NCBI GenBank assembly: GCA_025558095.1 | Contig: JAIVFI010000002.1 | Coordinates: forward strand, 682,001 to 746,000 | Direction: 5' to 3' | Origin: Hyaloraphidium curvatum SAG 235-1 | Lineage: Eukaryota > Fungi > Monoblepharomycota | Length of the DNA: 64,000 nucleotides | In this document: one piece after another, positions 2,048-32,743 of the stretch | Layout of the letters: each line of letters opens with the position of its first letter | How positions within the stretch are numbered: the first letter of the stretch is position 1 | Made by a program: the position numbers and the translations under genes | Notes under the pieces: generated by a model | What the model saw: only the letters and a program-made list of their open reading frames with translations | Databases searched by the model: none | What the model was told of the DNA's origin: nothing

Positions 2048-4173
2048 ACATCCCTGCCTTTTGGCCCCCAAACCCTCCCGACCCCTTGCCTTTTTCTTCT
2101 TTTTCTGGGGGGGGACGGGCGCCCGGATTCCTCTCCGGGAGTGATCTCGGTCAGACTTCCCGTTCTTCGTCAACCCCAGTCACCGAGTCAGACTCGGGAC
2201 GAGCTACTGCGGGTTCCTCAGTCAATTGTGAATCAATGGAGCGAGTGCTGTCTGGCACGGAGTTCCCGGCCACGGTTGCCGCAGTGGAGGGAACCCTGTG
2301 GAGCGATCCGGGGACCCTGCCCGAGGCTGCGGCACCGGAGACGCAGATCCTCCTGCCGATCCCAACGACGAACGCACAGGTCGACCCGGCAGACGTGCCT
2401 GAGCGAGACCTGGCGTTCCTTCATCCGGCACTGCTTGAGGTGCTACCCGATGTCGGGGGCATCAGTGCTATTGACCTTGCCGACGTCAGATCCCGGGATG
2501 CCTTGCGCAAAGTGCAAGAAGCCGACGTCGAGACCAGCGCGCTGATCCGCTTCGTGCGAGACGGGGAGCTCCCTCCCAACGTGAATCTGGCCAAATTCTG
2601 CAAGAAGTACGGCGAGCAGTACTTCCTCGCTACGGACGGCGTGCTCTGCCGGCGCGATGTACTCGCGACTGGTACCCGTCGTATCCCGGTCACCCAGCTC
2701 GTGATACCGCACGAGCTGAGGGAGGCCTACCTGCAACGTGCGCACGACGATCCCCTGAGCGGGCACGTCGGGCGACACCGGGCGTACAGCAATCTGCGGC
2801 GCCGCGTATATTGGGTCGGCATGGCGCACGACGTTCGCCGCTGGACGCGAGCCTGCCTTACATGCATGACCCGGAAGATGCCTTCGGTATCGAACCAGGG
2901 CTTACTGAAATCGGTTCCTCTCACAGGTCCCAACGAGGACATCTACATCGACTACATCGGCGAGATCAATCCGGCCACGCCCCGCGGCAACAAGTACCTT
3001 CTCGTCGTCTACGATCCGTTCACTAAATGGGTCGCGGCGTATCCGACTCCGGACCTCTCTGGGCCGACGACGGCGAAGCTGCTCTATACGCGATGGATTC
3101 TCGAGCACGGTCTTCCGAAGCGGATTCACCACGACAACGCCTCGAACCTGGACAACCATTACATGGAGTACCTGCTCAAGCTACTCGGCATCAACCGGGG
3201 CCTGGTCACGGTTGGGCATCCCAGGGCTTCCCTCGCGGAGCGCCCGAACCGGTGGATCATCGACGCCCTGAGCGCAGCGGTCTCCAAGAACTACCAGACA
3301 TGGGACGAGGACATCGTGGGGGTCATCTTTGCCTTCCGGACCTCCATCCACGCGACGACCGGCGAAACTCCGTTCTTTCTGATGCATGGTCGGGATGCTC
3401 GTATTCCGCTCGACCTACTTTACGACGAGACCGAGATTCGCGAGCCAGTGCACCTGCGGGCCAGCGACGAGGAGGACAAGAAGACAGAGGATGAGCGCCG
3501 GCGGACCTACGTCGTGGAGCTCGTGGCGCAGCTTCGTGCGGCCTACGACCTGGTGGCCGAGAAGATGGCCGCAGCGGCGGAGACTCGGAACGCCAAGGCC
3601 AACGCTACCCGGCTTCCGATTACCTTCCGCCCCGGCGACCTCGTGCTCATCTGGGGACCAGAACGACCGCGCAAGGGCGAGCCGGGCAAGTTCGTCTCTC
3701 GTTATCTTGGGCCCTACCGCATCGAGGAGTCAGGCCACACCGAGCTCACCTGGAAGTGTAGACACGTCTACGAGACCGACCACGTCACCACTGTGCATGT
3801 GGACCGGCTGGCGCGCTACAAGCCTTGGGAGTCGGCCACCTTCAACGCGCGCTCGTGGAACGCACGCGCCCCGGAGCTCGCCGCCGGTGAAGAGCTCGAT
3901 CTCTCGGAACCGGTGAACGAGTTCGAAGAGGAAATCGAGGTCGAGAACGCGCTTGGGAACGAGCAGGAGTACACCGTCGAGGACATCGTCGGCCACGAGG
4001 GCCAGGGTCACGGACTCAAGTTCGAGGTCAAGTGGCGGGGCTTCGCTCGCACGACCAAGCTCCCTCTGGACATGTTGCACGGCGCCATAGGGATCGTCCG
4101 CGCCTATGCCGATCGCGTTGGTCTCCAGCTCCCGACGGGTCTCCCCAGGCGCATGCGGACTCGGCGTCGCTAG
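2048..4173 (+). pseudogene. pol: Interrupted pol 3' part: RNaseH-IN linker, integrase (HHCC, DDE, GPY/F) and chromodomain
   Basis: AHDDPLSGH..CLTC zinc motif; IDYIG / HDNAS / AERPNR catalytic triad; YLGPYRI; YTVEDIV..FEVKWRGF chromodomain. The 5' side is replaced by the copy 1 LTR. Confidence 0.92.
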
Positions 4174-4243
4174 TAACACCAACGACGTCTATCCGGTCAC
4201 AGCACTACCATCTCTGTGCTCCGATCCCCGGCTTTTCACTGAC

Positions 4244-5229
4244 TCAAACCCGACGTACTACCTCGAGCCTATCCTCGACCCCCTCGAACGCCAACTTGTG
4301 ATACCCGGACTGAAAATGCGTGTTCAGATTGCCCAGGAGGCCCTTAGCCTTGTGCTTTACCAGATGGCACCACGGGAACGAGCATACCGCCACTTCGCCC
4401 TTGGTGGGGCTCCGGTACAGTTCGCCGGCGTACGTTCCGGCAATCTTCCATCGGAGGAAGGAGCCTGCCGGCACGGCATCAGGGACCTTCTTCGTCACCC
4501 GTTCCGCCTTCAAGCCCCAGACCGGCGACGACTTCTTCATCTGGCACATTCAGTGACGATCAGCGCTTGTGGGGCGTACTCCCGTCGAGCCGTTCACCTG
4601 CGCAATCTGCTCCCGGGCCTCCCCGCGCTGCACCACATGCCCCTCGTCTTTACCTGAAGTTGCCGTTTGGGCCGTCTGGAAGGCGCTCCCTTGTTCAGTG
4701 GCGGCCTCGAAGTCGCCTAAGTGGTCCAGCTCCCAAGAGGGCGCATGAAGCGTGACTGACAGCACGGGGACTTCGTCGGCCGCCTCGAGCTCCTCCCTCG
4801 AGTCCGCCGCCGACTCGCCCTCGCCGACGGAAGGCGCACCCTTCGACGACATCGCCGGCAGGAAGACGCCGGAGGTCCGGGTTGCGGCCGCGGCCGCGAT
4901 CGGGTCGTTGCCTCTGGCCCCGCCAGCCTCGCGCAGCTTGGCGGTCCCGCCGGCCTCGCGCAGCTCGGCGACGAGCCGACGGAGCACTCGGACCTCGACA
5001 ACGACGTTCCCAGCCTCTTCGGCCAGCGGCAACATCCCGCGCATGGCGGCCAGACGCACCAGTTGCAGGAAGCAGTCGACCACGTCGTCCTCCTGGCGCG
5101 GCGCTGAGCTCCCGTTCGAGGACCACGCCGCTACGCTCTTACCTTGGTGCACAGCAGGACGTCGAAGGTCGGCAACCGAACCTCGAACCACGAACTCGGC
5201 GGGACGACGTTCGGCAGCTCCGCACTCAT
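4244..5229 (-). CDS. Family A spliced antisense accessory gene (copy 2), about 292 aa with C-terminal BED-like zinc finger; exons 5229-5143, 5092-4598, 4540-4244
   Basis: Mirror image of 14362-15347. Two GT-AG introns (50 and 57 nt) join three reading frames in phase 0. Confidence 0.72.
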
Positions 5230-5368
5230 GACAGGCGCGGAGATCCCCCCAGCTCTTCTGGACCCTACGTCGCGATCCCCCGCGAGCGCTTTCGTCGACG
5301 CAATGGCGTACGGCCCTCGCTCGCGCCCCGTCCCCCGTGGCGGGGACTGGTGACCCGGTGTGCGGGCG

Positions 5369-5530
5369 AACTCGCGGTCGACTCGACTCGCAGTTGACTC
5401 GCGGTTGACTCGCGGTTGGCTCGCGGTTGACTCGCAAGTGACTCGCGAGTCACTCGCGAGTCGCTCGCAAGTCACTCGCGAGCGACTTGCGATGCACTCG
5501 CGAGTTGCCTGCGCTTCGCACCATATAAGC
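5369..5530. promoter_or_regulatory. Internal array of about 12 x 11-bp repeats (GACTCGCGAGT-like) plus TATA; putative bidirectional internal promoter
   Basis: Same repeat unit as LTR U3. CATATAA at about 5522-5528. Lies between the divergent ATGs at 5229 (-) and 5598 (+). Confidence 0.7.
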
Positions 5531-5597
5531 GGCGGACCACAGGAGGCCGCGGCCGCGGACTACGCACCCAACGTCGACCTCGCCGCTACCGTCTCCC

Positions 5598-6863
5598 ATG
5601 GCGACCCCCACGACTGCCGGCCACAACCTGCGGCCCCGCCGGCCGCATGTGGCCACGGCGCCGCCGCCGGCGACTGCGCCCGTCGCTGCGTTGCCTGGCG
5701 TCGTACCCCCGGACTATCGGTCGGCGCTTGCCTCCCTCTCGACCCGGCTGGACGACCTCCGGGCCGACCTCGACGTCAGACACTCCCAGACGACGGCCCA
5801 CTTGCACAAGGTCGAGCAGGCCGCCTTCTCCGCGGTCATGCCCATCCGCGCAGCCCTCGACGCACTCCACCCGGTGCTCAACACCCTCGTCAATGTCGGC
5901 AACCTGGAGCAGCACGCTCTTGACCGCGTAACGGCGACGCTCGAGCAGCAAGAGGCCCGCCTGGACGCCCAGATCCGCCAGCAGCGTGACGAGCTCCAGG
6001 TGGTCCTCAGTGGCCGCCACCGCGAACTTGAGTTCGCCGTCACCGCCTTGCGCCGGACCGACGACGCTCGTCTCGGTGCCATCGAGACGCAGCTCGACCG
6101 GCTTGCGTTGGTGCTCGAGGCTCAACGTCAGAACTTCAACGGCATTCTCCTGGTGGACGAAGCTACCATCGAGGAGTTGAGGGAGTTCGGCTCTTCCCTC
6201 GCCGGGCTGGTTGCTCAGACCGGGGCCAACCTCGAAACCACCATCGAGACCGTCGTCGAGACCAATCTCGCCCGTCACAACAATGGCCCCATGGCGGAGT
6301 TTGCGGCCGACCTCAAGAGCGTCCTGGCGGCCCATCTGCAGCGATTTGGGTCGGAGCAGCACAAGCAGCTCATGCTTTCAGCTCAAGACCACACCACGCT
6401 CCTCACGGCCGGCCTGAACGCGCAGCGCGAGCACTTCACCAAGACCGCCGACGAGCAACGGGCCCTCCTGCGTCGCTTCCTCGGCAATCAAGTGGCTCCC
6501 CTGGCGGGGCAAACGACGCCCGCCGTGGTCACCTCCACGCCGGTCGGCCGCGTCAAGGACGAGGACCTCGTCACCTCCGACGATGAGGCTGGGGATATGC
6601 AACCTCCAGCTCCTCGCCCCGAGAGCGTGTCCAGCAGCGACGCCTCCTCCATCGTCTCGCAGGACGACGGCCTCTTGGCCGCCCTGTACGACGACATCCC
6701 GGCCGCTCCCTACAAGTCGACCATGCCCCCGGTCTACACCCCCTCGGCCGCGGACGGCTCAGCCGTGCATGCCGCCTTCGCTCTCGGCTTTACCCGCCGG
6801 CTCCGCGCCCCGCCGCCGAGCGACGACGAGGCGGACGCCGACGTCGACTTTGAGGACGCCTAA
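5598..6863 (+). CDS. Family A accessory sense ORF, 421 aa (copy 2)
   Basis: Same ORF as 208-1473 and 12728-13993. Confidence 0.8.
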   Translation: MATPTTAGHNLRPRRPHVATAPPPATAPVAALPGVVPPDYRSALASLSTRLDDLRADLDVRHSQTTAHLHKVEQAAFSAVMPIRAALDALHPVLNTLVNVGNLEQHALDRVTATLEQQEARLDAQIRQQRDELQVVLSGRHRELEFAVTALRRTDDARLGAIETQLDRLALVLEAQRQNFNGILLVDEATIEELREFGSSLAGLVAQTGANLETTIETVVETNLARHNNGPMAEFAADLKSVLAAHLQRFGSEQHKQLMLSAQDHTTLLTAGLNAQREHFTKTADEQRALLRRFLGNQVAPLAGQTTPAVVTSTPVGRVKDEDLVTSDDEAGDMQPPAPRPESVSSSDASSIVSQDDGLLAALYDDIPAAPYKSTMPPVYTPSAADGSAVHAAFALGFTRRLRAPPPSDDEADADVDFEDA

Positions 6864-7005
6864 GCCACCCTTCGGTCCTACACTCTCCAACATCTGTTGT
6901 CTCCACCTCGGCCTTCAACATCTTCTACTGCAAGCGTGACGTCACTCCGCGGAGGATCTTCGATTTCGTGGCGCCGAGGGCGGCGCCTTCTTTTGGGTGG
7001 GGGCG

Positions 7006-7492
7006 TGCGAAGGTACAGGACGTCTGACATTCGGACAAGGGTATTTTCATTTTCGGTTCGGAGGCGTGGAGGCGTCGGTCCTCGCGATCGACTCGTGATC
7101 GACTCGTGATCGACTCGCGATCGACTCGCGAGTGACTCGCGAGTCACTCGCGAGCGACTCGCGAGCGACTCGCAAGTGACTCGGCACAGCCACCCTCCTG
7201 GGATATATAAAGAGCGGGACATGTAACAGTACAATCTTGATCGCCAGTTGACTCTACGTGCTCTCCGTGTCGTTCGACCACCGTGCGGAACCCCGCCCGG
7301 CCGGATCCTCGTTCTGAGAGCCCTTGGGACGCACCCCGGGAGACATCCCGTAACCTCTTTCCCCCGGCTACAGTCAAGTATCTTCAGCGCTGTTCGCTTA
7401 TTCATATTCAGGGCCTATCCGACCCGAAGAGCCGAGCGGGATTCGCGCGCCGGGTTAGAGCTTCAGGCCCGGTTCCGACCCGGACCGTCGCA
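7006..7492 (+). repeat. Family A LTR (487 bp), 3' LTR of copy 2
   Basis: TGCGA...TCGCA termini; PPT at about 6995-7005; about 9 units of the 11-bp repeat. Confidence 0.95.
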
Positions 7493-9826: not shown

Positions 9827-12087
9827 TGTCAGCGTCTGCCACGTCCGCTGTCGGCCTGAGCCTACTCACGGAACGTGTTTATGAGCCCGCAATGCCGCAG
9901 CACTGCCCAGTACGGCTTCGGAATTGGAACCGCCTGGCAAAGGGGCAGCCGATTTCGGGTCCGCCGGTGGCGTAAGACATCGCCACTCTCCCAGGATCGG
10001 ATCCGACAGATCCAATCCGCACCTAAGTGCTCCAGCGAAGGCTGGATTCGTACGCGAAAGCTGTAAGCAAAGGCTCGCGAGCGAAAAGGAGGTTGAGGAA
10101 AGGGACTTGGCACGCGAGCGCGCTCAAGTCAACGGGGACCGGAGTCCCCAGGAGTCAGAGATCACGATCACAGATGTATGTAGTCTACGAAGGGCTCGCG
10201 AGCGAATAGGAAGGGCAGCTTACAGCACACGAGGGCCGAAGCCGCAGGACTTAATTCCCCGGAGCCGCAGGACACAGTTCCCCGGACTTCCCTGTCCTTT
10301 GTGGACTTTGAAAGGAAGCCCGTGATGGAGTTCAGCTCATGCATCGAGCTGGCATGCGACGGTGTGAGGACTAGCCCTATCTGTGACTTAGGGTAGAGCG
10401 CTAGCGTGCAGCCCAGAGGCCATGCGCACAAACCCTTGTGCCTCACCGATTCTCACTACAATTACCCTTCGCCGCCTTGAGCCTCGCTCGGTCCTGCTAC
10501 GCCCTCTAGCAGCGCCCTAGGCCAGGATCTGCCCCCGATCCTGACAAAGTGAGAATCGGTCCGTGGAACGCGAGTTTCACGTAAAGCTCGGCTCAACAAG
10601 CGGCGGCGCGGCTACGACCAGGGCTGCGCAGCGTTCCTTTGCGTAGGTCACCGCAAGGACGCAGTTCATTACCTCGAACGTCGAGAAACGAACGATTTGA
10701 CGTCGGGGAAGGTTCGAAAGTTCAGGAATTCGGGGAGGAATTCGTCGGGAAGCAAGGGTGGACGTTGAATGGACTCAGCGCAACCGGCGCATCCTCGCTC
10801 AGACGACGAGGAATCGGACGAAGGAGCCTACGAGAGGCATCAGCAGCGCACTGACGACATCGACGACGTCGCAGGAGGCGTAGGAACGCGCGAGATTGAG
10901 GCGATTTTGCCGGATCAGCGAGAACCCGAACGCGTCGACGAACGCGCCGAAGAACGTCACGAATCCCGCTCGCCACCGCCAAGGAACACAATGGCGAACG
11001 CGAAGCCAGCAAAGCTGCCCGAAATGGCGAAGTTTTCGGGGCAGGCGCGGGATCTAGACAAGTTTTGGACGGAACTCGACTTGCGCCACTGGAACGACCG
11101 CCACTGGAACGACCCCGAGCGCTACGGAACCGAACAGAATCCGACCGCCACTTCTCGGATCATCTTGGCGATCGCGAACATGACCGGCGACGCGTCGGAA
11201 TGGGCTACTCAGAAGTTCAAGACGGGTGAAGTCACGGGCAAGACGTACGCGGAGTTCAAAACAATGGTAAACGAACGATTCGCGGACCCGCTCCTCAAGG
11301 AAAAGGCGCAAAAGAAACTTGATACCATGAAGCAAGGCAACAGGCCGTTCACCAGCTACAAGGAGTGTCAGGGACGCGTAAGCGAGGAACTCCTGACCTT
11401 CAACGGACTTCTGTACCTGCCGAACCGCGAGCTTCAGCTCGAGGTTCTCCAGACCCGCCACGACTCGAAGACGGCCGGACACTTGGGCACCGCGCGCACG
11501 CACGACCTGATCTCGCGCGACTTCTGGTGGCCCAGGATCTGGAACGACGTCAAGAACTACGTGCGGACGTGCGACACTTGCGCGCGCACCAAGGCGCCGA
11601 GGCACGCTCCTTTCGGACACCTGTACCCGCTCCCGATCCCGACCCGCAACTGGAGCTCGATCTCCATGGACTTCATCACCAAACTCCCGGTCTCCAAGGG
11701 CTGGGACTCGATCCTTGTCGTCGTGGACCGGCGATCGCGCCAGACCCATCTCGAGCCCTGTCGAGAGGCCATGACGGCCAAGGAGGTCGCCGAGCTCTAC
11801 GTTCGCGCCGTCTACCGTCATCACGGCATCCCCGACGTTCTCGTCTCCGACCGCGACCCCAAGTTCGTCGCCAAGTTCTGGAAAGAGCTGCACGCGATCC
11901 TGGGGACCAAGCTCAACATGTCATCGGCTTTCCACCCGCAGACCGACGGCATGCCGGAAAATAAGAACCAGACCATCGAGGCGTACCTCAGGAGCTTCAT
12001 CTCGTACCACCAGGACGACTGGGCGGACCTCCTTCCTCTTTGCGAGGCCGCGATCAACAACGCCCGCTCGGCCTCCACCGGAACCTC
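9827..12087 (+). mobile_element. Family B Ty3/Gypsy (Tf1-like) deletion derivative: putative 5' LTR about 9827-10546, self-priming PBS 10548-10560, gag-integrase fusion ORF
   Basis: TGTCAG (9827)...CTGACA (10546) termini; the left end is tentative. PBS AGTGAGAATCGGT is complementary to 10445-10457. Tf2-type integrase motifs follow. Truncated by the family A LTR at 12088. Confidence 0.7.
10769..12087 (+). pseudogene. In-frame gag N-terminal part fused to integrase; lacks PR, RT and RNase H; 3' truncated
   Basis: Gag-like MTGDASEW..F..RF..AQKKLDTMKQG runs directly into GLLYLP..RHDSKTAGHLG..CDTC, WSSISMDFIT, VSDRD and HPQTDG..E. Confidence 0.85.
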
Positions 12088-12585
12088 TGCGACGGTCCGG
12101 GTCGGAACCGGGCCTGAAGCTCTAACCCGGCGCGCGAATCCCGCTCGGCTCTTCGGGTCGGATAGGCCCTGAATATGAATAAGCGAACAGCGCTGAAGAT
12201 ACTTGACTGTAGCCGGGGGAAAGAGGTTACGGGATGTCTCCCGGGGTGCGTCCCAAGGGCTCTCAGAACGAGGATCCGGCCGGGCGGGGTTCCGCACGGT
12301 GGTCGAACGACACGGAGAGCACGTAGAGTCAACTGGCGATCAAGATTGTACTGTTACATGTCCCGCTCTTTATATATCCCAGGAGGGTGGCTGTGCCGAG
12401 TCACTTGCGAGTCGCTCGCGAGTCGCTCGCGAGTGACTCGCGAGTCACTCGCGAGTCGATCGCGAGTCGATCGCGAGTCGATCACGAGTCGATCACGAGT
12501 CGATCGCGAGGACCGACGCCTCCACGCCTCCGAACCGAAAATGAAAATACCCTTGTCCGAATGTCAGACGTCCTGTACCTTCGCA
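12088..12585 (-). repeat. Family A 3' LTR of copy 3 (498 bp)
   Basis: Reverse complement of the LTR, with about 10 repeat units. Confidence 0.95.
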
Positions 12586-12727: not shown

Positions 12728-13993
12728 TTAGGCGTCCTCAAAGTCGACGTCGGCGTCCGCCTCGTCGTCGCTCGGCGGCGGGGCGCGGAGCCGGCGGGTA
12801 AAGCCGAGAGCGAAGGCGGCATGCACGGCTGAGCCGTCCGCGGCCGAGGGGGTGTAGACCGGGGGCATGGTCGACTTGTAGGGAGCGGCCGGGATGTCGT
12901 CGTACAGGGCGGCCAAGAGGCCGTCGTCCTGCGAGACGATGGAGGAGGCGTCGCTGCTGGACACGCTCTCGGGGCGAGGAGCTGGAGGTTGCATATCCCC
13001 AGCCTCATCGTCGGAGGTGACGAGGTCCTCGTCCTTGACGCGGCCGACCGGCGTGGAGGTGACCACGGCGGGCGTCGTTTGCCCCGCCAGGGGAGCCACT
13101 TGATTGCCGAGGAAGCGACGCAGGAGGGCCCGTTGCTCGTCGGCGGTCTTGGTGAAGTGCTCGCGCTGCGCGTTCAGGCCGGCCGTGAGGAGCGTGGTGT
13201 GGTCTTGAGCTGAAAGCATGAGCTGCTTGTGCTGCTCCGACCCAAATCGCTGCAGATGGGCCGCCAGGACGCTCTTGAGGTCGGCCGCAAACTCCGCCAT
13301 GGGGCCATTGTTGTGACGGGCGAGATTGGTCTCGACGACGGTCTCGATGGTGGTTTCGAGGTTGGCCCCGGTCTGAGCAACCAGCCCGGCGAGGGAAGAG
13401 CCGAACTCCCTCAACTCCTCGATGGTAGCTTCGTCCACCAGGAGAATGCCGTTGAAGTTCTGACGTTGAGCCTCGAGCACCAACGCAAGCCGGTCGAGCT
13501 GCGTCTCGATGGCACCGAGACGAGCGTCGTCGGTCCGGCGCAAGGCGGTGACGGCGAACTCAAGTTCGCGGTGGCGGCCACTGAGGACCACCTGGAGCTC
13601 GTCACGCTGCTGGCGGATCTGGGCGTCCAGGCGGGCCTCTTGCTGCTCGAGCGTCGCCGTTACGCGGTCAAGAGCGTGCTGCTCCAGGTTGCCGACATTG
13701 ACGAGGGTGTTGAGCACCGGGTGGAGTGCGTCGAGGGCTGCGCGGATGGGCATGACCGCGGAGAAGGCGGCCTGCTCGACCTTGTGCAAGTGGGCCGTCG
13801 TCTGGGAGTGTCTGACGTCGAGGTCGGCCCGGAGGTCGTCCAGCCGGGTCGAGAGGGAGGCAAGCGCCGACCGATAGTCCGGGGGTACGACGCCAGGCAA
13901 CGCAGCGACGGGCGCAGTCGCCGGCGGCGGCGCCGTGGCCACATGCGGCCGGCGGGGCCGCAGGTTGTGGCCGGCAGTCGTGGGGGTCGCCAT
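12728..13993 (-). CDS. Family A accessory sense ORF, 421 aa (copy 3)
   Basis: Identical protein to 5598-6863. Confidence 0.8.
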   Translation of the reverse strand: MATPTTAGHNLRPRRPHVATAPPPATAPVAALPGVVPPDYRSALASLSTRLDDLRADLDVRHSQTTAHLHKVEQAAFSAVMPIRAALDALHPVLNTLVNVGNLEQHALDRVTATLEQQEARLDAQIRQQRDELQVVLSGRHRELEFAVTALRRTDDARLGAIETQLDRLALVLEAQRQNFNGILLVDEATIEELREFGSSLAGLVAQTGANLETTIETVVETNLARHNNGPMAEFAADLKSVLAAHLQRFGSEQHKQLMLSAQDHTTLLTAGLNAQREHFTKTADEQRALLRRFLGNQVAPLAGQTTPAVVTSTPVGRVKDEDLVTSDDEAGDMQPPAPRPESVSSSDASSIVSQDDGLLAALYDDIPAAPYKSTMPPVYTPSAADGSAVHAAFALGFTRRLRAPPPSDDEADADVDFEDA

Positions 13994-14060: not shown

Positions 14061-14222
14061 GCTTATATGGTGCGAAGCGCAGGCAACTCGCGAGTGCATC
14101 GCAAGTCGCTCGCGAGTGACTTGCGAGCGACTCGCGAGTGACTCGCGAGTCACTTGCGAGTCAACCGCGAGCCAACCGCGAGTCAACCGCGAGTCAACTG
14201 CGAGTCGAGTCGACCGCGAGTT
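14061..14222. promoter_or_regulatory. Internal 11-bp repeat array plus TATA (copy 3)
   Basis: Reverse complement of 5369-5530. Confidence 0.7.
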
Positions 14223-14361
14223 CGCCCGCACACCGGGTCACCAGTCCCCGCCACGGGGGACGGGGCGCGAGCGAGGGCCGTACGCCATTGCGTCGACGAA
14301 AGCGCTCGCGGGGGATCGCGACGTAGGGTCCAGAAGAGCTGGGGGGATCTCCGCGCCTGTC

Positions 14362-15347
14362 ATGAGTGCGGAGCTGCCGAACGTCGTCCCGCCGAGTTCG
14401 TGGTTCGAGGTTCGGTTGCCGACCTTCGACGTCCTGCTGTGCACCAAGGTAAGAGCGTAGCGGCGTGGTCCTCGAACGGGAGCTCAGCGCCGCGCCAGGA
14501 GGACGACGTGGTCGACCGCTTCCTGCAACTGGTGCGTCTGGCCGCCATGCGCGGGATGTTGCCGCTGGCCGAAGAGGCTGGGAACGTCGTTGTCGAGGTC
14601 CGAGTGCTCCGTCGGCTCGTCGCCGAGCTGCGCGAGGCCGGCGGGACCGCCAAGCTGCGCGAGGCTGGCGGGGCCAGAGGCAACGACCCGATCGCGGCCG
14701 CGGCCGCAACCCGGACCTCCGGCGTCTTCCTGCCGGCGATGTCGTCGAAGGGTGCGCCTTCCGTCGGCGAGGGCGAGTCGGCGGCGGACTCGAGGGAGGA
14801 GCTCGAGGCGGCCGACGAAGTCCCCGTGCTGTCAGTCACGCTTCATGCGCCCTCTTGGGAGCTGGACCACTTAGGCGACTTCGAGGCCGCCACTGAACAA
14901 GGGAGCGCCTTCCAGACGGCCCAAACGGCAACTTCAGGTAAAGACGAGGGGCATGTGGTGCAGCGCGGGGAGGCCCGGGAGCAGATTGCGCAGGTGAACG
15001 GCTCGACGGGAGTACGCCCCACAAGCGCTGATCGTCACTGAATGTGCCAGATGAAGAAGTCGTCGCCGGTCTGGGGCTTGAAGGCGGAACGGGTGACGAA
15101 GAAGGTCCCTGATGCCGTGCCGGCAGGCTCCTTCCTCCGATGGAAGATTGCCGGAACGTACGCCGGCGAACTGTACCGGAGCCCCACCAAGGGCGAAGTG
15201 GCGGTATGCTCGTTCCCGTGGTGCCATCTGGTAAAGCACAAGGCTAAGGGCCTCCTGGGCAATCTGAACACGCATTTTCAGTCCGGGTATCACAAGTTGG
15301 CGTTCGAGGGGGTCGAGGATAGGCTCGAGGTAGTACGTCGGGTTTGA
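14362..15347 (+). CDS. Family A spliced antisense accessory gene (copy 3): exons 14362-14448, 14499-14993, 15051-15347; about 292 aa, C-terminal C-x4-C-x16-H-x5-H BED-like finger
   Basis: Intron 1 is AAG|GTAAGA...GCTCAG...CCAG| (50 nt). Intron 2 is CAG|GTGAAC...GCTGAT...CCAG| (57 nt). Each removes an in-frame stop and is phase 0. The protein ends AVCSFPWC...GNLNTHFQSGYH. Confidence 0.75.
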
Positions 15348-15417
15348 GTCAGTGAAAAGCCGGGGATCGGAGCACAGAGATGGTAGTGCTGTGACCGGAT
15401 AGACGCCGTTGGTGTTA

Positions 15418-18400
15418 CTAGCGACGCCGAGTCCGCATGCGCCTGGGGAGACCCGTCGGGAGCTGGAGACCAACGCGATCGGCATAGGCGCGGACGATCC
15501 CTATGGCGCCGTGCAACATGTCCAGAGGGAGCTTGGTCGTGCGAGCGAAGCCCCGCCACTTGACCTCGAACTTGAGTCCGTGACCCTGGCCCTCGTGGCC
15601 GACGATGTCCTCGACGGTGTACTCCTGCTCGTTCCCAAGCGCGTTCTCGACCTCGATTTCCTCTTCGAACTCGTTCACCGGTTCCGAGAGATCGAGCTCT
15701 TCACCGGCGGCGAGCTCCGGGGCGCGTGCGTTCCACGAGCGCGCGTTGAAGGTGGCCGACTCCCAAGGCTTGTAGCGCGCCAGCCGGTCCACATGCACAG
15801 TGGTGACGTGGTCGGTCTCGTAGACGTGTCTACACTTCCAGGTGAGCTCGGTGTGGCCTGACTCCTCGATGCGGTAGGGCCCAAGATAACGAGAGACGAA
15901 CTTGCCCGGCTCGCCCTTGCGCGGTCGTTCTGGTCCCCAGATGAGCACGAGGTCGCCGGGGCGGAAGGTAATCGGAAGCCGGGTAGCGTTGGCCTTGGCG
16001 TTCCGAGTCTCCGCCGCTGCGGCCATCTTCTCGGCCACCAGGTCGTAGGCCGCACGAAGCTGCGCCACGAGCTCCACGACGTAGGTCCGCCGGCGCTCAT
16101 CCTCTGTCTTCTTGTCCTCCTCGTCGCTGGCCCGCAGGTGCACTGGCTCGCGAATCTCGGTCTCGTCGTAAAGTAGGTCGAGCGGAATACGAGCATCCCG
16201 ACCATGCATCAGAAAGAACGGAGTTTCGCCGGTCGTCGCGTGGATGGAGGTCCGGAAGGCAAAGATGACCCCCACGATGTCCTCGTCCCATGTCTGGTAG
16301 TTCTTGGAGACCGCTGCGCTCAGGGCGTCGATGATCCACCGGTTCGGGCGCTCCGCGAGGGAAGCCCTGGGATGCCCAACCGTGACCAGGCCCCGGTTGA
16401 TGCCGAGTAGCTTGAGCAGGTACTCCATGTAATGGTTGTCCAGGTTCGAGGCGTTGTCGTGGTGAATCCGCTTCGGAAGACCGTGCTCGAGAATCCATCG
16501 CGTATAGAGCAGCTTCGCCGTCGTCGGCCCAGAGAGGTCCGGAGTCGGATACGCCGCGACCCATTTAGTGAACGGATCGTAGACGACGAGAAGGTACTTG
16601 TTGCCGCGGGGCGTGGCCGGATTGATCTCGCCGATGTAGTCGATGTAGATGTCCTCGTTGGGACCTGTGAGAGGAACCGATTTCAGTAAGCCCTGGTTCG
16701 ATACCGAAGGCATCTTCCGGGTCATGCATGTAAGGCAGGCTCGCGTCCAGCGGCGAACGTCGTGCGCCATGCCGACCCAATATACGCGGCGCCGCAGATT
16801 GCTGTACGCCCGGTGTCGCCCGACGTGCCCGCTCAGGGGATCGTCGTGCGCACGTTGCAGGTAGGCCTCCCTCAGCTCGTGCGGTATCACGAGCTGGGTG
16901 ACCGGGATACGACGGGTACCAGTCGCGAGTACATCGCGCCGGCAGAGCACGCCGTCCGTAGCGAGGAAGTACTGCTCGCCGTACTTCTTGCAGAATTTGG
17001 CCAGATTCACGTTGGGAGGGAGCTCCCCGTCTCGCACGAAGCGGATCAGCGCGCTGGTCTCGACGTCGGCTTCTTGCACTTTGCGCAAGGCATCCCGGGA
17101 TCTGACGTCGGCAAGGTCAATAGCACTGATGCCCCCGACATCGGGTAGCACCTCAAGCAGTGCCGGATGAAGGAACGCCAGGTCTCGCTCAGGCACGTCT
17201 GCCGGGTCGACCTGTGCGTTCGTCGTTGGGATCGGCAGGAGGATCTGCGTCTCCGGTGCCGCAGCCTCGGGCAGGGTCCCCGGATCGCTCCACAGGGTTC
17301 CCTCCACTGCGGCAACCGTGGCCGGGAACTCCGTGCCAGACAGCACTCGCTCCATTGATTCACAATTGACTGAGGAACCCGCAGTAGCTCGTCCCGAGTC
17401 TGACTCGGTGACTGGGGTTGACGAAGAACGGGAAGTCTGACCGAGATCACTCCCGGAGAGGAATCCGGGCGCCCGTCCCCCCCCAGAAAAAGAAGAAAAA
17501 GGCAAGGGGTCGGGAGGGTTTGGGGGCCAAAAGGCAGGGATGTCCAAGATTTCCTCGGGGTCGCCCATAGGCACGTCCTCGTCGGGCGACGGCGCCACGA
17601 GCTGACGAGACAGGAAGTCGGCGTTGGAGTTCGCTTTGCCCGAGCGATGGATGATCTGGAACCTGAAGTCCGAGAGCCGGAGGATCCAGCGCTGTAGGCG
17701 GCCCGGCTTGGAGGTCTCCAAGAGCCATTTGAGGGCGCTATGGTCGGTGACCACCTCAAACTCGTCCCCGATCAAATACGCCCGGAAATGCTCGCATGCC
17801 CAAACAACGGCCAGGGCTTCGCGCTCCCGAGTGTCCCACTTGCGCTCGTTCGGCTGCAGAGCGCGGCTGGCGTAGGCGATGACGTACTCCTTGCCATCGG
17901 AGTCCCGCTGGCTGAGCACCGCGCCGAGGCCGATATCGCTGGCATCCGTGAACAAGACGAAGCGCTTGGAAAAGTCGGGGCGACGGAGCACGGGCGCCGA
18001 CGTAAGCCGTTCCTTTAGCATACGGAAGGCGGCCTCGCATGCGTCGTCCCAGGCCCGAGAGACCGAGACGCCGTCCTGCGTCAGGCGGGTGAGCGGGCTG
18101 GCAATGTTGGCGTAGCCGGCAATGAAGGGGCGATAGTAGTTGGAGAGGCCGAGAAACGATTGGAGCTCCTTCTTGGTCGTTGGGCGGGGGAACTGGTCCA
18201 CCGCGCGGGTCTTCTCGGGGTCGACCTTGAGGCCGTCGGCGGTGACGTAATGCCCGAGGTATTTGACCTCGCGGCGGAAGAACTTGCATTTGGCCAGCTT
18301 CAGAGTCATCCCGGCCTCGCGCAGTCGGTCAAAGAGGAGCTCCAGGTGCACGAGGTGCTCGTCGACCGTCTGCGAGAAGATAATGATGTCGTCGATGAAG

Positions 18401-20468
18401 ACCACCAAGCAGTACCACTGGAGGCCGGCGAGGAGCTCGTCCGAGCAAAGGTTGCAGGAGCGTTGGTAAAGCCCATGGCCATCCGCTCCCACTGGTAGAG
18501 ACCGCGGTGCGTCGTGAAGGCCGTCTTTTCCTTGTCCTCGTCGGCCACCTCCACGTGCCAAAAGCCGGAGCGGATGTCGCAAACGCTCCACACCTTGGCC
18601 GCGCTGAGGAGAGCGAGAGTGTCGCTTGGGTTCTTCATCGGGTAGACGTCGCGCTTGGTGGCGGCGTTGAGCTTCCGGTAATCGATCACCAGGCGCCATT
18701 CGCCCGAGCCGTGCCCTTTTGGCACCATGATGCAGGGCGTGGCCCAGGGGCTTCGCGAGGGGACGACTACGCCCTGCACGAGCAGGTCGTCGATGATCTT
18801 GTCCATTTCCCCGCGAAGCCGGAACGGGGTCCGGTACGGCATCTGGTGGATCGGCTTGAGGTCGCCCGTGTCGATCCGGAAGCGATGGTTGCGCAGCTTG
18901 CCGATCCAAGGACCAAACACGTCCCGGTAGCGGTCGCAGAGCTTATGGAAACGAGGTTTGTCCCCCTCGCTCAGGATCGTTTGGTCCATCTTGAGCTCGA
19001 TAGCCTCGACCGGAGGAGGCTCCACGCCGGGAGGCTGAGGTGGTCCAATCGATCCCGGCGAGGGCACCGCGAACAGATCGATGGTCTCCTCGACCGTGAG
19101 CGTGGATTCGGCCGGTTCGGTGTGGGGCAGCTCGGGCTCCAGCATCGAGATCTGCGCGGGAGCCAGATACGTGGGCGGTTCCGGAGCGAGAAATCCAGGA
19201 ATCCGCACGCGGAAGCGGCCGAGGTGGGTGCCCGGGCCGATCGTGACCGGTGTCGTCCCGTAGTTGCGGATGAGAATCGGCAGCCGACCGTCTCTGTCGG
19301 GCGTCGCCGACGGGATGATGAAGAGGCGATCGAACGGCGAAGTGTTCGGCGTCTCGATGACCCCTGTCAAGTCCATCTCCACGACGGTCGCCAAGGGAGT
19401 CGTCGGGGCCAGCTCAGCGGTGATCGAGACGTCCTCGTTGGGGTAGACCGTGATGGAGGTGGTTGAATGGAGCGGGGCGACCAGGTGTGATCCGAAGAGC
19501 GGTCGCGCAACAATGTGCATTGGCACGACGACCCCCTCCGGATCGTCCTTGAAATAGAGGACCGGCGTCTCCCAGTCCATCTGAACGCGTAGGGCGGAGA
19601 GCCAAGGGGTGCCGAGGATCACGTCGTCCATGAGACCGTCCATGATGGCGACGTCCATGACGCAGTGTTGATTCCCGACCAGGATGTCCATCTTAGCAAC
19701 TCCGCGGACCCACATGGTTCCGCCGGCCGCGGCCGTGCTGAGGGTGCCGAGTGTCCATGGTTTGATCGGTGGCGACGGGTGGATCCGGCAGAAGAAGGAC
19801 GACCGAACCGCCACCACTGAGGCACCGGAGTCGACGAGGGCCGCGGGGGTATTCACGCCGTTGACCCATGCCGAAACGCGTGCCGCCTGATAGTGGAACT
19901 GCACTTGCGAAGTCCACGTCCAGCGATCCGGCGGAGGGGCGACCGGAGCAGGTGGCCGCGGGCGAGGCCGAGGGCCAGGCAGCGGTGGTCGTGCGTAGGC
20001 GGAAGGAGGAGGGGGCCTTTCGAAAGGTCCGGGAACGGCGCGGACGGTCGGGCCCTCGTGCATAGGTGCATCCGCTGATCCCGCGTCCGCATCCTGTGCC
20101 GCCGGTTCACCGTTTCCCACGACCTCGACCGAGCCGGGCGACGCCGAATCCGCTGCCGGCGGCGGGGCCAGGGTCTCGTCGATCGGCATGAGCGCCTCCC
20201 GCTGCTGACGAACGGCGGCCTGTCGAGCTGCCTCCGCCTCGAGGAAGAGGATGTACTCCGTGCCCCCGAAGGGCCAATGATGAACGTGGTCCTCCGCCGT
20301 CGGTTCATCGGTCGCGGAATCCGACAACTCCGGCGATCCGCCAGGAGATGAAGGGTCCGTGCCGTCCGGCAGCGGGGAAGTTCCAGGAAGAGGTTCCACA
20401 TGTGGTTCAAGAGCTTGGATCTCTGCCCCCCTATGGCCGTGCGGCACTGAGGGCAAAGCTAGTTTTTT
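15418..20468 (-). pseudogene. pol: Family A pol (protease, RT, RNase H, integrase, chromodomain) with a frameshifting small deletion near 18443
   Basis: LVDSGA protease; IDYRKLN, GFTNAPATF and FIDD in RT; TDAS, EREALA and TDH in RNase H; integrase DDE; chromodomain. The frame breaks between PATFAR and DELLAGL. Confidence 0.95.
20421..20468 (-). other. Programmed -1 ribosomal frameshift signal: A AAA AAC (20468-20462) plus downstream stem-loop
   Basis: Gag ends CCA AAA AAC TAG and pol is open in the -1 frame (GCC AAA AAA CTA). CTTTGCCCTC can pair with GGGGGCAGAG downstream. Confidence 0.8.
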
Positions 20469-22114
20469 GGCATCGAAGGGGTGTTGCCGAGGCGAGACTT
20501 CCAGTTGAGTGGGCGGCGGTTGGCATTCTTCTCCAACTCCCAGCACTCGTCCTGAGCATGCCCATCCATGCCACAGAGATGGCAGTGGCGAGGCTGGAAG
20601 CGCTTCTGGTCGCGGTACTCCGAGGTGAAGGGCCGGCGATCCTGGCGCTCCTGCTGCTGGCGGGGCCGATCGATCGGAGGAGGCCTCGCGGGGGGGTTCG
20701 ACCTGGTCTCCGCGGCCTGAACCTGATGGCGAGGCGACGGCAGCAGCTTGGTGATGAGCTCCTTGATCTCGACGAGGTCGCTGTTCGGCCCCGAAGGCGG
20801 CAACGGCTGGCTCCGACGAGACTGGAAGGGGACGAAACGGCGCGGAGGCCGGAACGCAGACTCCCCCGGCGGTCCACCGGTGGGCCTGCGCTCTCCCTTA
20901 GGCTCCAGCAGCTTTGTGAGAGCCTGCGTATGAGCCAGCAGCACTTCCGTCGTCGCCTTGTCGGTCGCCTTGGAGGAGCCCGAAGACGAGTGCTGGCCGA
21001 CCAGAGCCGGAATCTCCGAAATCGAGTTCTGGCCCAGGAAACGGATGTCGCGCGGCTGCGCAGGGCCCGATGCTTGCATGACGGTGCGCATCTTCTCGAT
21101 GACCTTGGTGACGGAAGTGCGGTTGATGAGGTGATCCCCGAGGAGCTCCAGCGCCTTCCCGCGTAGCTCCGGGCGCAGTCCGTAGAGCAGGTTCTGGCCG
21201 TACACGCTGTCTTGCACTTCCCTGGTAGGAAGCTGATCGCCGCAGTGCGAGAGGAAACGCGTCTCGGCCAGGGATACGCGGGCAACGAAGGCGTCGAGGG
21301 TCTCATCGTTGGTCATCTGAATCGTGTTGTAGTGCCGGCGATAATGCATCGATGCGTCGCGGGGCTCGAAGTGGTAGCGTAGCCAGGCAAGCACATCGTT
21401 CTGGGTCACCGGAGGATAGGTGGCCGTCGCGGGATAGTCCGGAGGGCGGTTCTGCGGCGTGATGTTGTGCCACATTGCGCGCGGCAGAGGCCCAAGGAAG
21501 ACCGGGAAGACCTTGACGAGGTTGTTGATGGAGCCGAACGCCGTGAGAACCGTAGTGAGGTCGCGGAAGAAGTCTTCCGGGTCCTGCGTAGCGGGATCGA
21601 AGGGCTGAACAGAAGCAGGCAGCAGCTGAGCCGGGAGCTTGGCGGCTCCGCCCTGGCGATCCGCCTGGGGGAGGCCGGTGCTTCCATCGTTCGGCGGCTG
21701 AGCGCCAACGATGGCCCGTACGGCGTCGACGAACTGCTGCGGCTGGAGACCAGCGGCGGCAGCGTTGACAGCCTGGGCTTGCTCGCTCCGCTGACCCTGC
21801 TGCTGTGCGGCGAGCTGCTGGAGCTGCTGCGCTGCAAGCTGCTCGGCGGCGGCTTGCTGTTGAACTTGGGCAGCTGGCAACTGCTGAGCGGTCTGTTGCG
21901 CCACGAGCTGAGCGGCAAGCTGATCGGCGACGGCTTGCTGGGCGGCTTGCTGGGCGGCGAGTTGGGCGACGTCGTTGGCGGCGGCGCCGACTTGCTGGAT
22001 CGCGGCCTGCGCAGCTTGGATAATCGCCTGGGCCTGCGGGTTGTTCTGCAAATCGTTAGCTTCCTGAGGCTGCTGAACCTCCTGCTGAGGGGCGGCTTCT
22101 TGAACGGGGTCCAT
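20459..22114 (-). CDS. gag: Family A gag (about 551 aa; Q/A-rich N-terminus, capsid-like core, CCHC knuckle)
   Basis: ATG at 22114 (MDPVQE); CHLCGMDGHAQDEC zinc knuckle; located just after the PBS. Confidence 0.9.
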   Translation of the reverse strand: MDPVQEAAPQQEVQQPQEANDLQNNPQAQAIIQAAQAAIQQVGAAANDVAQLAAQQAAQQAVADQLAAQLVAQQTAQQLPAAQVQQQAAAEQLAAQQLQQLAAQQQGQRSEQAQAVNAAAAGLQPQQFVDAVRAIVGAQPPNDGSTGLPQADRQGGAAKLPAQLLPASVQPFDPATQDPEDFFRDLTTVLTAFGSINNLVKVFPVFLGPLPRAMWHNITPQNRPPDYPATATYPPVTQNDVLAWLRYHFEPRDASMHYRRHYNTIQMTNDETLDAFVARVSLAETRFLSHCGDQLPTREVQDSVYGQNLLYGLRPELRGKALELLGDHLINRTSVTKVIEKMRTVMQASGPAQPRDIRFLGQNSISEIPALVGQHSSSGSSKATDKATTEVLLAHTQALTKLLEPKGERRPTGGPPGESAFRPPRRFVPFQSRRSQPLPPSGPNSDLVEIKELITKLLPSPRHQVQAAETRSNPPARPPPIDRPRQQQERQDRRPFTSEYRDQKRFQPRHCHLCGMDGHAQDECWELEKNANRRPLNWKSRLGNTPSMPKN

Positions 22115-22281: not shown

Positions 22282-22757
22282 TGCGACGGTCCGGGTCGGA
22301 ACCGGGCCTGAAGCTCTAACCCGGCGCGCGAATCCCGCTCGGCTCTTCGGGTCGGATAGGCCCTGAATATGAATAAGCGAACAGCGCTGAAGATACTTGA
22401 CTGTAGCCGGGGGAAAGAGGTTACGGGATGTCTCCCGGGGTGCGTCCCAAGGGCTCTCAGAACGAGGATCCGGCCGGGCGGGGTTCCGCACGGTGGTCGA
22501 ACGACACGGAGAGCACGTAGAGTCAACTGGCGATCAAGATTGTACTGTTACATGTCCCGCTCTTTATATATCCCAGGAGGGTGGCTGTGCCGAGTCACTT
22601 GCGAGTCGCTCGCGAGTCGCTCGCGAGTGACTCGCGAGTCACTCGCGAGTCGATCGCGAGTCGATCACGAGTCGATCGCGAGGACCGACGCCTCCACGCC
22701 TCCGAACCGAAAATGAAAATACCCTTGTCCGAATGTCAGACGTCCTGTACCTTCGCA
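22282..22757 (-). repeat. Family A 5' LTR of copy 3 (476 bp)
   Basis: TG..CA termini; about 8 repeat units. Confidence 0.95.
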
Positions 22758-23999
22758 GGAGGCAGCACCGTCAGCGCGAGTACCGCCGTCCTATCTGGTG
22801 GGTCTTCTCGCACGTTGGGCACGGGTTCGAACGCGGGCGAAGTCGTCGGACCCCTGGTCGAGTCCAAGAACGTCGAGGAGATCAAGGTTCCCGCGACCGA
22901 TGGCTCCCTTCCGAAGCCAGCTTCGCAGGGAACCGCTGTCGCGGATCCGCCGAGCAGGAGCTCCGGCACAGAAAGCAACGCGGTCGGCGGATCCCTGCCG
23001 AAGCCCGCATCGCATGGATCGGATGTCGCGGCAGCCGCTCCCGCGTCCCCCATCGCCCCCGTGGGCACCAGCAGGCTGCTCATCAACGAATCGGACGTCA
23101 CCATCAACCGCAACAAGATCCTCGGCGAAGGCTCGTTCGGCACCGTGTACGAAGGCGTCCTGCTGGGATCGACGCACGTGGCGATCAAGGTCGGGCGCGG
23201 TGCCTTCGACAACGCGGCAGCCCAGGCGTTCGCCAAGGAGGTCAAGAACTGGGAAGGACTCGCGCAGAGGAACGGTGGGAGGCACCAGGATGCAGCCGCA
23301 CGGAAAGCAATTGACAACGCCCTTTTCCCTCGCAGTGCTCCCGCTCCTTGCGTATTGCGCCTCGCCGCCCATGATGATCTCCGAGATCGCCGACGGCGGC
23401 AACCTCCGCCAGCACCTGGCCGCCCGCGCCTGGGATCAAGCCCTCGGCCTGCGCTTCCTCCTTGACGTGAGCCGCGGCATGGCGTACCTGCACTCGGTCG
23501 GCATCCTCCACGGCGACCTCAAGTCCGCCAACGTGCTCGTCGACGGCTCGCGCGCCCTGGTGTGCGACTTTGGCCTCTCGCGGTTCCGCCAGGCCGGCAC
23601 TGGAACGGCCACCCATGGAGCCACGTCGCACAACGGCGGGCTGATGGGCACGGTCGGCTTCATCGCGCCCGAGATGATGCAGGGCGGGTCGCTCAGGCCG
23701 CCGGCGGACGTTTTCGCGTTCGCCATGACGTGCTACGAGGTCGTCAGCAGGGGCAAGTATCCGTTCCAGGATGCTCCGAACGTCATGGCGGTGGGTACCA
23801 TCCCCGGCGATCGCCATCCGCGAAGCTGATCCGCTCCCTGCAGATCTTCTACGCCGTGGCCGTCGAGAAGAGCAGGCCCGCGCGGCCGGAAGGCGTCCGC
23901 GACGACGTGTGGGCGCTCATGGAGAGGTGCTGGGCCCACGAGCCGGCCGAGCGCCCGCGGTTCGTCGAGGTCCGCGACGCGCTTTCGGGGATGGTCTGA
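22758..23999 (+). CDS. Tyrosine kinase-like (TKL) protein kinase, 5'-truncated by the LTR; introns 23275-23335 and 23791-23843
   Basis: GEGSFG, VAIK, HGDLKSANVL, DFG, GTVGFIAPE, DVFAF and CW...RP motifs are all intact. Confidence 0.9.
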
Positions 24000-29534: not shown

Positions 29535-29730
29535 CGCAGCGGATGCCCCGCGGCGCGGCGGCCGGATTTTCCGACGGTTTCTAGATGTATTGGTGGTCGT
29601 CCGGACGTGGCGCGGCGCCCCGGGTCATCCGGGAGGATCCGGCCAGTTGGGAACCTTCTGCGGCGGTGCTGGCGAGTTCCCCCGCCACTCCGTCAGAACC
29701 CGCCCGCAGCAATCGGCCACCCCTCCCGCC

Positions 29731-31468: not shown

Positions 31469-31771
31469 AGGGCCGCTCGACTGGGGCGTCCTGACTGTGT
31501 CGATCATCTGATTATTCATTCCTTCGTTGTATCGTTGATGAATTGCCATCTTGCTGCTCTCCTGCACCTTTCCTGTTCCCCGCAACCAACTTTTGAGCCG
31601 TAGATTCGGCGGGCGGAGCTGAATGCTGGGAGATAGACCGGCAAACTTCGCCACAAAACAATCTTGCGTTCGGTCCGCACCCGAGGCAGCCTTGCGGTCT
31701 TGGAAAGCGCGGAGTTGCTCGGCGTGCCGCACGAACCGGCTCGTGAACGCGTCCGCGATTACCGAGGAACC

Positions 31772-32743
31772 ATGGCCCCCGGCCCGTTCTCCAACCGCGT
31801 CACGGCGCTGCTCGGCATCGAGCATCCCATCCTGCTCGCCCCGATGGATATGGTTGCGTGCGGGCGGCTCGCGGCGGCCGTCTCCCGTGCGGGCGGCCTG
31901 GGCATCCTCGGCGGCGGCTACGCGAACGCGGACGCGTGGCTCGAGCAGGAGCTTGCCGCCGCACAGGACGAGCGCGTCGGCGTCGGGTTCATCACCTGGA
32001 GCCTCGCCAAGCACCCGCAGCAGCTGGACATTGCGCTCCGCCACAAGCCGGCCGCGATCATGCTTTCGTTCGGCGACCCGCGTCCGTTCGCTGGCAAGAT
32101 CAAATCCGCGGGGCTGCCGCTCATATGCCAGGTGCAGACGCTGACGCAGGCGCGCGAGGCGGCCGAGGCCGGTGCGGACATCATCGTCGCCCAGGGCACG
32201 GAAGCCGGCGGCCACGGCCAGTCGCTCCCCCTGTTCTCCTTCCTACCCGCCGTGGTCGATGGGTGCCCGGGGATCCCGATCGTGGCCGCCGGGGGCGTCG
32301 CGGACGGCCGCGGGCTCGCGGCGGCGCTGGCGCTCGGTGCCCAGGGCGTGCTGGTCGGCACGCGCTTCTACGCGTCGCAGGAGGCCGCCGTCCACCCGGC
32401 GGCGAAGCAGCGCGTGGTGGAAGCCCAGGCGGGGGACTCGGTGCGATCGGTCGTCTTTGACATTTCGCGGAGGAACGTGTGGCCTTCTCCGTACACGGGG
32501 CGGGTGCTCAGGAACAAGCACGCGGAGAGGTGGCTCGGCAGGGAGGTCGAGCTCCTGCAGAACGCGGAGGAGGAGTCGGCAAAGTTCTTTGCCGCCCGCG
32601 AAGCAGGGGACTTCGACATCGCGGCCGTGATTGCGGGGGAGGCGAGCGCCCTGATCCACGATGTGCCTCCGGCAGGCGTGATTGTGAAGAGGATCGTTGA
32701 GGAGGCGGTTGCGATCCTCGGCAAGCTAGCTCCGCGGTTGTAG
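31772..32743 (+). CDS. Nitronate monooxygenase / 2-nitropropane dioxygenase-like flavoprotein
   Basis: PILLAPM, AGGLGILG, QGTEAGGH, AAGGVADGRG and GVLVGTRF motifs; intronless. Confidence 0.92.
   Translation: MAPGPFSNRVTALLGIEHPILLAPMDMVACGRLAAAVSRAGGLGILGGGYANADAWLEQELAAAQDERVGVGFITWSLAKHPQQLDIALRHKPAAIMLSFGDPRPFAGKIKSAGLPLICQVQTLTQAREAAEAGADIIVAQGTEAGGHGQSLPLFSFLPAVVDGCPGIPIVAAGGVADGRGLAAALALGAQGVLVGTRFYASQEAAVHPAAKQRVVEAQAGDSVRSVVFDISRRNVWPSPYTGRVLRNKHAERWLGREVELLQNAEEESAKFFAAREAGDFDIAAVIAGEASALIHDVPPAGVIVKRIVEEAVAILGKLAPRL

Follow-up and report, generated by a model that had tools for sequence, protein, structure and literature searches.

A spliced antisense gene encoding a putative zinc finger in a very young LTR element of Hyaloraphidium curvatum

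A three-exon gene antisense to gag-pol

A three-exon gene lies antisense to gag-pol inside a full-length LTR element of H. curvatum, and it is real: its spliced frame is open and both of its joints are present in one sequencing run. Positions 14362-15347 (+) of the window, by which we mean the whole 64,000-nt stretch of DNA analysed, join through two GT-AG introns to 879 nt, corresponding to 292 aa and a stop. The product ends in a putative C2H2-type zinc finger, and the gene adjoins a tandem array of the palindrome CTCGCGAG that recurs in the LTRs of the element. We favour, at somewhat short of an even chance, the reading that this product is a dimeric BED-like regulator that would bind the CTCGCGAG arrays and regulate, probably raise, transcription of its own element.

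Exon 1 (14362..14448, +; 29 codons) starts at the first in-frame ATG, the presumed start. Intron 1 (14449..14498, +; 50 nt, phase 0) reads GTAAGA...CAG and contains a branch-like GCTCAG 17 nt from its end. Exon 2 (14499..14993, +; 165 codons) encodes a heptad-like helix at about residues 55-76, followed by an acidic Ala/Ser/Gly-rich linker. Intron 2 (14994..15050, +; 57 nt, phase 0) reads GTGAAC...CAG, carries an in-frame stop, and has GCTGAT 24 nt and ACTGAA 14 nt from its end. Exon 3 (15051..15347, +; 98 codons) holds the conserved domain, which consists of three predicted strands, the finger and a KxAFEGV tail. The initial annotation had assembled ORF fragments into a frame of about 292 aa through these same introns, and its coordinates were exact. 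It had also described the introns as host-sized, each with a branch-like motif, which agrees with the three host introns that could be deduced from the reading frames of two host genes; these measure 53, 58 and 152 nt and contain GCTGA[TAC] as branch motif. The GC content at codon positions 1, 2 and 3 is 0.69, 0.47 and 0.81 in the antisense gene, similar to the 0.72, 0.46 and 0.78 of gag.

Splicing was followed in the public run X1, the single run containing the stretch, which provides contigs only and is RNA by guess. Exactly two joints occur in these contigs, in one contig each: a skip of 50 nt and a skip of 57 nt, both GT..AG, that register at 14448/14499 and 14993/15051, the junctions for which the initial annotation had asked for spliced reads. 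The binned depths of X1 are incompatible with a contig reading through intron 1, but contigs drop minor forms. The ends of both skips are canonical on the plus strand only; thus the skipped molecule is antisense to gag-pol. It is very improbable that the frame arose by chance, or that the joints come from an intronless DNA copy, with no protein made. The guessed RNA nature of X1 and the origin of the joined forms from one run speak for such an artefact, against which stand the plus-strand polarity of both skips and the alignment of a homologous protein, P0001 (described below), over the intron-2 junction. Moreover, none of 100 dinucleotide shuffles of 14240-15420 reached 292 aa when up to two such introns were permitted (median 84, 95th percentile 194).

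The initial annotation had pointed to a competing donor at 14938, predominant use of which would drop the finger. No joint from this donor is listed among the X1 contigs, which drop rare forms. P0001 matches the stretch G-E-A-x-x-Q-I-A-x-M ungapped over the intron-2 junction, which favours the 14994 donor over the one at 14938. The 14938 donor was rejected as a candidate: joined to 15051 it breaks the frame (two cut positions tried), and its use would delete the stretch matching P0001 just before the junction.

The gene had also been expected to escape gene finders. A search of recorded proteins of 182-2000 aa (946 candidates) returned the homologue and not the 292-aa protein itself. This is weak evidence that annotation has passed over the antisense gene, whereas its sense neighbour is recorded. 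The antisense gene and pol converge, with 70 bp between their stops (15347-15418), so that terminal overlap of their transcripts is possible. Close by, at about 15458-15487, the X1 contigs branch.

The surrounding element spans 10.7 kb on the minus strand (22757 to 12088), which bears out the placement of the gene, in antisense, inside a retroelement. Its 5′ LTR (TG...CA; 22282..22757, -) and 3′ LTR (12088..12585, -) show no substitution and one 22-bp indel over 471 aligned bases, differing by two array units only. The element has the LTRs and the order protease, RT, RNase H and integrase that a Ty3/Gypsy chromovirus requires. Where they would be expected, it also carries a TGG stretch resembling a primer-binding site and a purine run. 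The 551-aa gag (20459..22114, -) was assigned by its position and a C-terminal CCHC-like knuckle, with no Pfam gag match. Its tail (20459-20470, -) has an A-AAA-AAC run directly before the stop, presumably a typical -1 frameshift heptamer. Pfam places protease, RT, RNase H, integrase and, below cut-off, a chromodomain in pol (15418..20458, -); the chromodomain match lies at the expected integrase C-terminus with an E value of 0.013 and 15.8 bits against a cut-off of 25.1. The RT frame of this copy shifts near 18420 (-) between two Pfam RVT_1 halves, at a position outside the stretches covered by the other copies; either a genuine lesion or a mistake in the assembly could account for the shift.

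Two partial copies, at 1-2047 and 2048-7492, differ from the full element by three substitutions each and by array-length changes, and the three copies are more than 99.6% identical. These near-identical copies and the LTRs without substitutions mark the element as very young. As a nested self-insertion, the copy ending at 2047 appears to sit in pol of the copy at 2048-7492. The latter copy carries the antisense gene a second time (4244..5229, -), with the same splice sites and one change, R36C. Thus the antisense frame and both splice sites are intact in the two window copies that cover the gene; the edge of the window truncates the third. No CpG depletion was found in the element (observed/expected 1.16, against 1.12 in host DNA), which gives no mutational sign of past methylation.

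The C-terminal finger and its homologue

The putative zinc site has the form C-x4-C-x16-H-x5-H (15207..15293, +), as the initial annotation had read it, with ligands C247, C252, H269 and H275. When exon 3 was searched against 1.84 billion representatives, two matches were obtained at E<=0.001. The sole accepted homologue, P0001 (KAI9034073.1), is a 274-aa H. curvatum protein from a single-member cluster. It is 45% identical to exon 3 over the domain (E 4e-11) and 31% identical to the whole spliced protein over 239 columns (E 2e-23). In both proteins two Cys precede an N-[LM]-N-x-H helix, and another His follows after five more residues; P0001 also keeps the KxAFEGV tail, and its finger reads C-x4-C-x18-H-x5-H. 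The four ligands, loss of which in homologues the initial annotation would have held against its reading, are therefore all kept in this one homologue. With one run and one homologue sampled, each of the three refuting conditions named in the initial annotation has thus come out in favour of its reading. The helix near residue 60 is common to both proteins (alignment E 0.003), and the N-terminal likeness on its own is marginal, as 14 of 1000 shuffles scored equally well. P0002 (E 4e-5), a 1752-aa repeat protein that aligned only ahead of the finger, was discarded as spurious.

P0001 as a query returned itself alone. Relatives of the domain or of the integrase were sought in metagenome and viral contigs, where none of 172, 49, 176 and 17 pattern matches was confirmed, and the weak matches from two sequence searches of the PDB (3 and 1) included no zinc finger. 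The gene could be a passenger of no benefit to the element, picked up at the DNA level from a host gene (the relative of P0001) or from the zinc-finger end of a DNA transposon, which we consider quite improbable. A 31%-identical relative in the same species would suit such an origin, as would the fact that the sole difference between the two gene copies alters an amino acid. BED fingers, moreover, are typical of hAT transposases, according to excerpts of PMC3606216. However, a conserved host gene would be expected to have relatives in other organisms, and none was found among the 1.84 billion representatives. The frame and both splice sites have also stayed intact in both covering copies, and the gene is flanked by the array of the element.

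The initial annotation had likened the finger to the BED type, tentatively. By the defining tests, the signature and the Pfam model, the putative finger is not a BED family member. The BED signature is given as Cx2CxnHx3-5[H/C] in the available part of PMC3606216, and a pattern search for Cx2C came back empty, both homologues having C-x4-C. The Pfam model zf-BED (PF02892) gave no match at E<=10 to exon 3, to P0001 or to either finger alone, with HMMER filters that discard most matches above about 0.1. The aromatic pair that precedes the cysteines of BED fingers takes the form W-x-x-F. This form is absent here; two Trp and one Tyr upstream of the cysteines are conserved in P0001. Of the upstream SPVW, which the initial annotation had noted, S-P-V is not conserved in P0001 and W-G alone is kept. 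The product also has a longer predicted sheet in front of the finger than BED proteins, and no hATC or DDE part.

The features by which the finger resembles those of BEAF-32, DREF, ZBED1 and hAT transposases are its two Cys, its N-[LM]-N-x-H helix and the His five residues on, together with its nearest named clusters in language-model space. Among the 30 ESM Atlas feature neighbours of exon 3, 12 belong to the zf-BED set, one to zf-C2H2_12 and 17 to unnamed clusters. The best zf-BED match scored 0.92 (170 shared features; family on 12% of cluster members), a weak score given a recognition value of 2277, below the 2300 mark. Of the named clusters, a BED cluster comes first for the P0001 domain (0.83; family on 10% of members), and the cluster at rank 3 has zf-BED on 98% of its members (0.82), all scores being below 0.9. 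What stands of the earlier assignment is thus this likeness, and what falls is membership of the family; BED-like is the best lead for how the putative finger may work. Two AlphaFold2 models calculated from two-sequence alignments are of low confidence (pLDDT 44 and 40). In both, the cysteines are preceded by three strands and N-x-N-x-H lies in a helix. No significant fold match was obtained for the first model (Foldseek best E 0.83; VIA best Z 3.1 over 48,161 chains).

A classical or U1/matrin-type C2H2 finger (PROSITE-type pattern) has twelve residues between its second Cys and its first His. Here 16 residues (antisense product) and 18 residues (P0001) were counted. The H-x5-H spacing with H-x-x-S-x-x-H in both homologues nevertheless resembles that of matrin/JAZ-type fingers, and the P0001 helix has a sub-threshold Pfam match to the CIZ1-like zf-C2H2_14 (E 0.019). 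These likenesses speak for a rival reading, in which the product is an RNA- or protein-binding accessory factor with a U1/matrin-type finger. In the manner of CERV or Rev, it would help to export the genomic RNA, act on double-stranded RNA or suppress RNAi, and the arrays would be left to host factors. About 1 kb of the genomic RNA is complementary to the antisense mRNA, and a spliced accessory export factor has a precedent in CERV (excerpts of PMC10309623). We hold this reading to be unlikely: the Pfam match covers 15 residues, is below cut-off and is missing for the finger of the antisense product itself, for which Pfam gave no match, CIZ1-like included. Moreover, the ESM Atlas neighbours of both homologues are BED clusters, and the repetition of the LTR array beside the antisense gene is left unexplained. 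Among the points against a regulator that binds the arrays is the outcome of the BED signature and Pfam searches, in which the sole Pfam hint is CIZ1-like.

Palindrome arrays and a head-to-head gene pair

In the internal array (14086..14227), a predicted two-way promoter element, an 11-bp unit built on the palindrome CTCGCGAG is repeated about 13 times. The antisense gene and a second extra gene are arranged head-to-head around this array: about 135 nt separate its end from the antisense ATG, and 93 nt its start from the ATG of the sense gene. Neither the array nor the second gene had been mentioned with the initial annotation. Arrays are also found in the U3 of every LTR copy, at 1691-1738, 7081-7183, 12397-12510 and 22591-22682 (4.4, 9.4, 10.4 and 8.4 units, respectively). 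The unit number thus varies from 4.4 to 10.4 in otherwise near-identical LTRs, which indicates that array length changes faster than point mutations accumulate. Array length may tune promoter strength.

A TATA-like box (14062..14068, -) lies about 20 nt from the internal array and faces the sense gene, for which it would serve as a promoter element, judging from its sequence. The 5′ LTR array (22591-22682) is likewise found about 20 nt upstream of the TATA-like TATATAAA. Both arrays therefore stop about 20 nt ahead of a TATA-like box, and their spacer sequences differ. All 16 window copies of ACTCGCGAGT are inside the arrays of the element. The palindrome CTCGCGAG occurs 27 times in the window, with 25 occurrences in arrays, two in a neighbouring repeat region and none in the host DNA (41 kb). 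The host part of the window does contain the bare hexamer TCGCGA, 10 times.

The second extra gene (12728..13993, -) is sense to gag-pol and intronless, and encodes a helical protein of 421 aa with heptad-like stretches. It is on record as H. curvatum proteins P0003/P0004, being 99% identical to an annotated one, and its exact sequence is recorded. The annotated copy P0003 has an unrelated N-terminus and is probably a faulty gene model. The 421-aa protein gave no Pfam match above cut-off and no relative outside H. curvatum among 7,996 candidates scored. It lacks the transmembrane segment of an env-like protein, the highest 19-residue hydropathy being 1.2.

The hexamer core of the arrays, TCGCGA, equals the core TCG(C/T)GA reported for ZBED1 binding sites in the part of PMC7471704 available, a match that counts in favour of the BED-like model. 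The vertebrate element TCTCGCGAGA drives two-way transcription, and excerpts of PMC6192621 report one tested target that was unchanged on ZBED1 knockdown. CGCG palindromes are thus able to work in the absence of a BED protein, and a host factor may read the arrays of the element.

If the product does regulate its own element, as we favour, the following scheme can be proposed. The internal array would act as a two-way promoter for the antisense gene and the 421-aa gene. The C-terminal domain would form a three-stranded sheet followed by a BED-like C2H2 finger. Dimerisation would occur through the N-terminal heptad helix, in keeping with palindromic sites that recur at every helical turn (11 bp). 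The finger is predicted to bind the palindromes in the LTRs and in the predicted internal promoter. The acidic linker, with a net charge of -12 over residues 121-180, might recruit transcription machinery or keep the element unsilenced. The antisense introns would be carried as CT...AC in the genomic RNA and would persist because they are not spliced there.

It is composition alone that suggests activation over repression. The same binding evidence would serve an array-binding repressor, a copy-number brake that shuts the LTR with the help of antisense-RNA silencing; antisense transcripts of LTR elements can indeed feed silencing, according to excerpts of PMC7264820 and PMC12786077. Such a brake seems rather unlikely in view of the very young copies (LTRs without substitutions, three copies more than 99.6% identical) and of the acidic linker, neither of which is decisive.

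The BED fold is otherwise tied to DNA transposons and host insulator factors. Possible, if doubtful, is a more specific form of the self-regulation that we favour, in which a divergent BED-type finger was recruited into a self-contained circuit, with tunable arrays of its palindromic site in the LTR and in a two-way internal promoter serving both the regulator and the second accessory gene, and P0001 regulates a sister family. P0001 would then act on a sister family with its own array, so that protein and operator would co-evolve.

Comparison with known elements

Antisense accessory genes are already known; the present one combines an unclassified finger, splice evidence and a candidate operator array. 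Extra antisense ORFs between pol and the 3′ LTR are described for maize Grande, rice RIRE2, Silene Retand and PvRetro13 in excerpts of PMC7264820 and PMC11963269, and for brtn of the fungal (Botrytis/Sclerotinia) element Boty in excerpts of PMC8365987 and PMC4227169, the latter of which assigns Boty a chromodomain. In the same excerpts, gene23 of Grande is driven by a promoter of its own, located upstream, and its product is nuclear (PMC7264820), and tandem arrays are often found in this region of Retand, whose TRP28 is a proposed DNA binder (PMC11963269). The antisense gene lies between pol and the 3′ LTR, opposite to gag-pol, which is the position of an aORF-3R, and the plus-strand GT-AG joints in the X1 contigs (RNA by guess) point to antisense transcription. 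It thus shares position and orientation with Boty brtn, Grande gene23, RIRE2 and Retand TRP28. Unlike these, it comes from an early-diverging fungus and stands head-to-head with another extra gene, a copy of the LTR array lying between the two; its product is unrelated to theirs, belongs to no Pfam family and has an atypical C2H2 finger. Introns are also reported for the brtn gene.

Introns are not confined to antisense genes. The initial annotation had held that introns survive reverse transcription only when antisense, a rule contradicted by elements that splice their sense RNAs: Ogre and EVADE carry sense introns (excerpts of PMC12786077), and in Cer1 CERV is made from a spliced mRNA and the unspliced genomic RNA is exported (excerpts of PMC10309623).

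If the proposed self-regulation holds, the closest working analogue for self-targeting of tandem arrays would be VANC, the anti-silencing proteins encoded by VANDAL DNA transposons; their targets are arranged as tandem repeats within the encoding elements, as described in excerpts of PMC5735166. The likeness would be one of function, VANC proteins belonging to plant DNA transposons. Further parallels are found among retroviruses. Foamy-virus Tas is a self-encoded regulator with an internal promoter, and HTLV-1 HBZ is a spliced antisense regulator that starts in the 3′ LTR. The antisense gene recalls both, by its self-encoded candidate regulator with a predicted internal promoter and by its spliced antisense transcript. 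However, the proteins are different, and the antisense gene starts about 1.8 kb inside the element instead of in the 3′ LTR. An HTLV antisense promoter is mentioned in excerpts of PMC7264820.

Neither this element nor a BED-type antisense gene in a retrotransposon was found among the literature matches listed, whose scope leaves most subscription journals outside. The function of LTR-retrotransposon antisense accessory genes is called open in excerpts of PMC7264820, where a search for spliced antisense transcripts is called for. The present gene is intact and very young, has both joints and adjoins a candidate target, a 10-bp palindrome confined in the window to the arrays of the element, which makes self-regulation directly testable. 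It extends antisense accessory genes to an early-diverging fungal phylum (Monoblepharomycota) and to a zinc-finger type without a matching family model, and provides an example of a gene apparently skipped by annotation.

Finally, some observations were made on the surroundings of the element. A target-site duplication is absent at its ends (12075-12095, 22750-22770), where it borders on an integrase-like frame (left) and a kinase frame (right). The missing duplication and the unlike flanks suggest recombination between copies. Another retroelement frame (10769-12087, +), with Retrotrans_gag/Ty3_capsid and then integrase domains and without protease or RT, is cut by the 3′ LTR of the element. 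A tRNA scan and a bacterial promoter scan, which are of no relevance here, found nothing. The frames of an ABC transporter (26772-29624, -), a nitronate monooxygenase (31637-32743, +) and a family-1 glycoside hydrolase (43253-45457, -) are long and unbroken in this short-intron genome.
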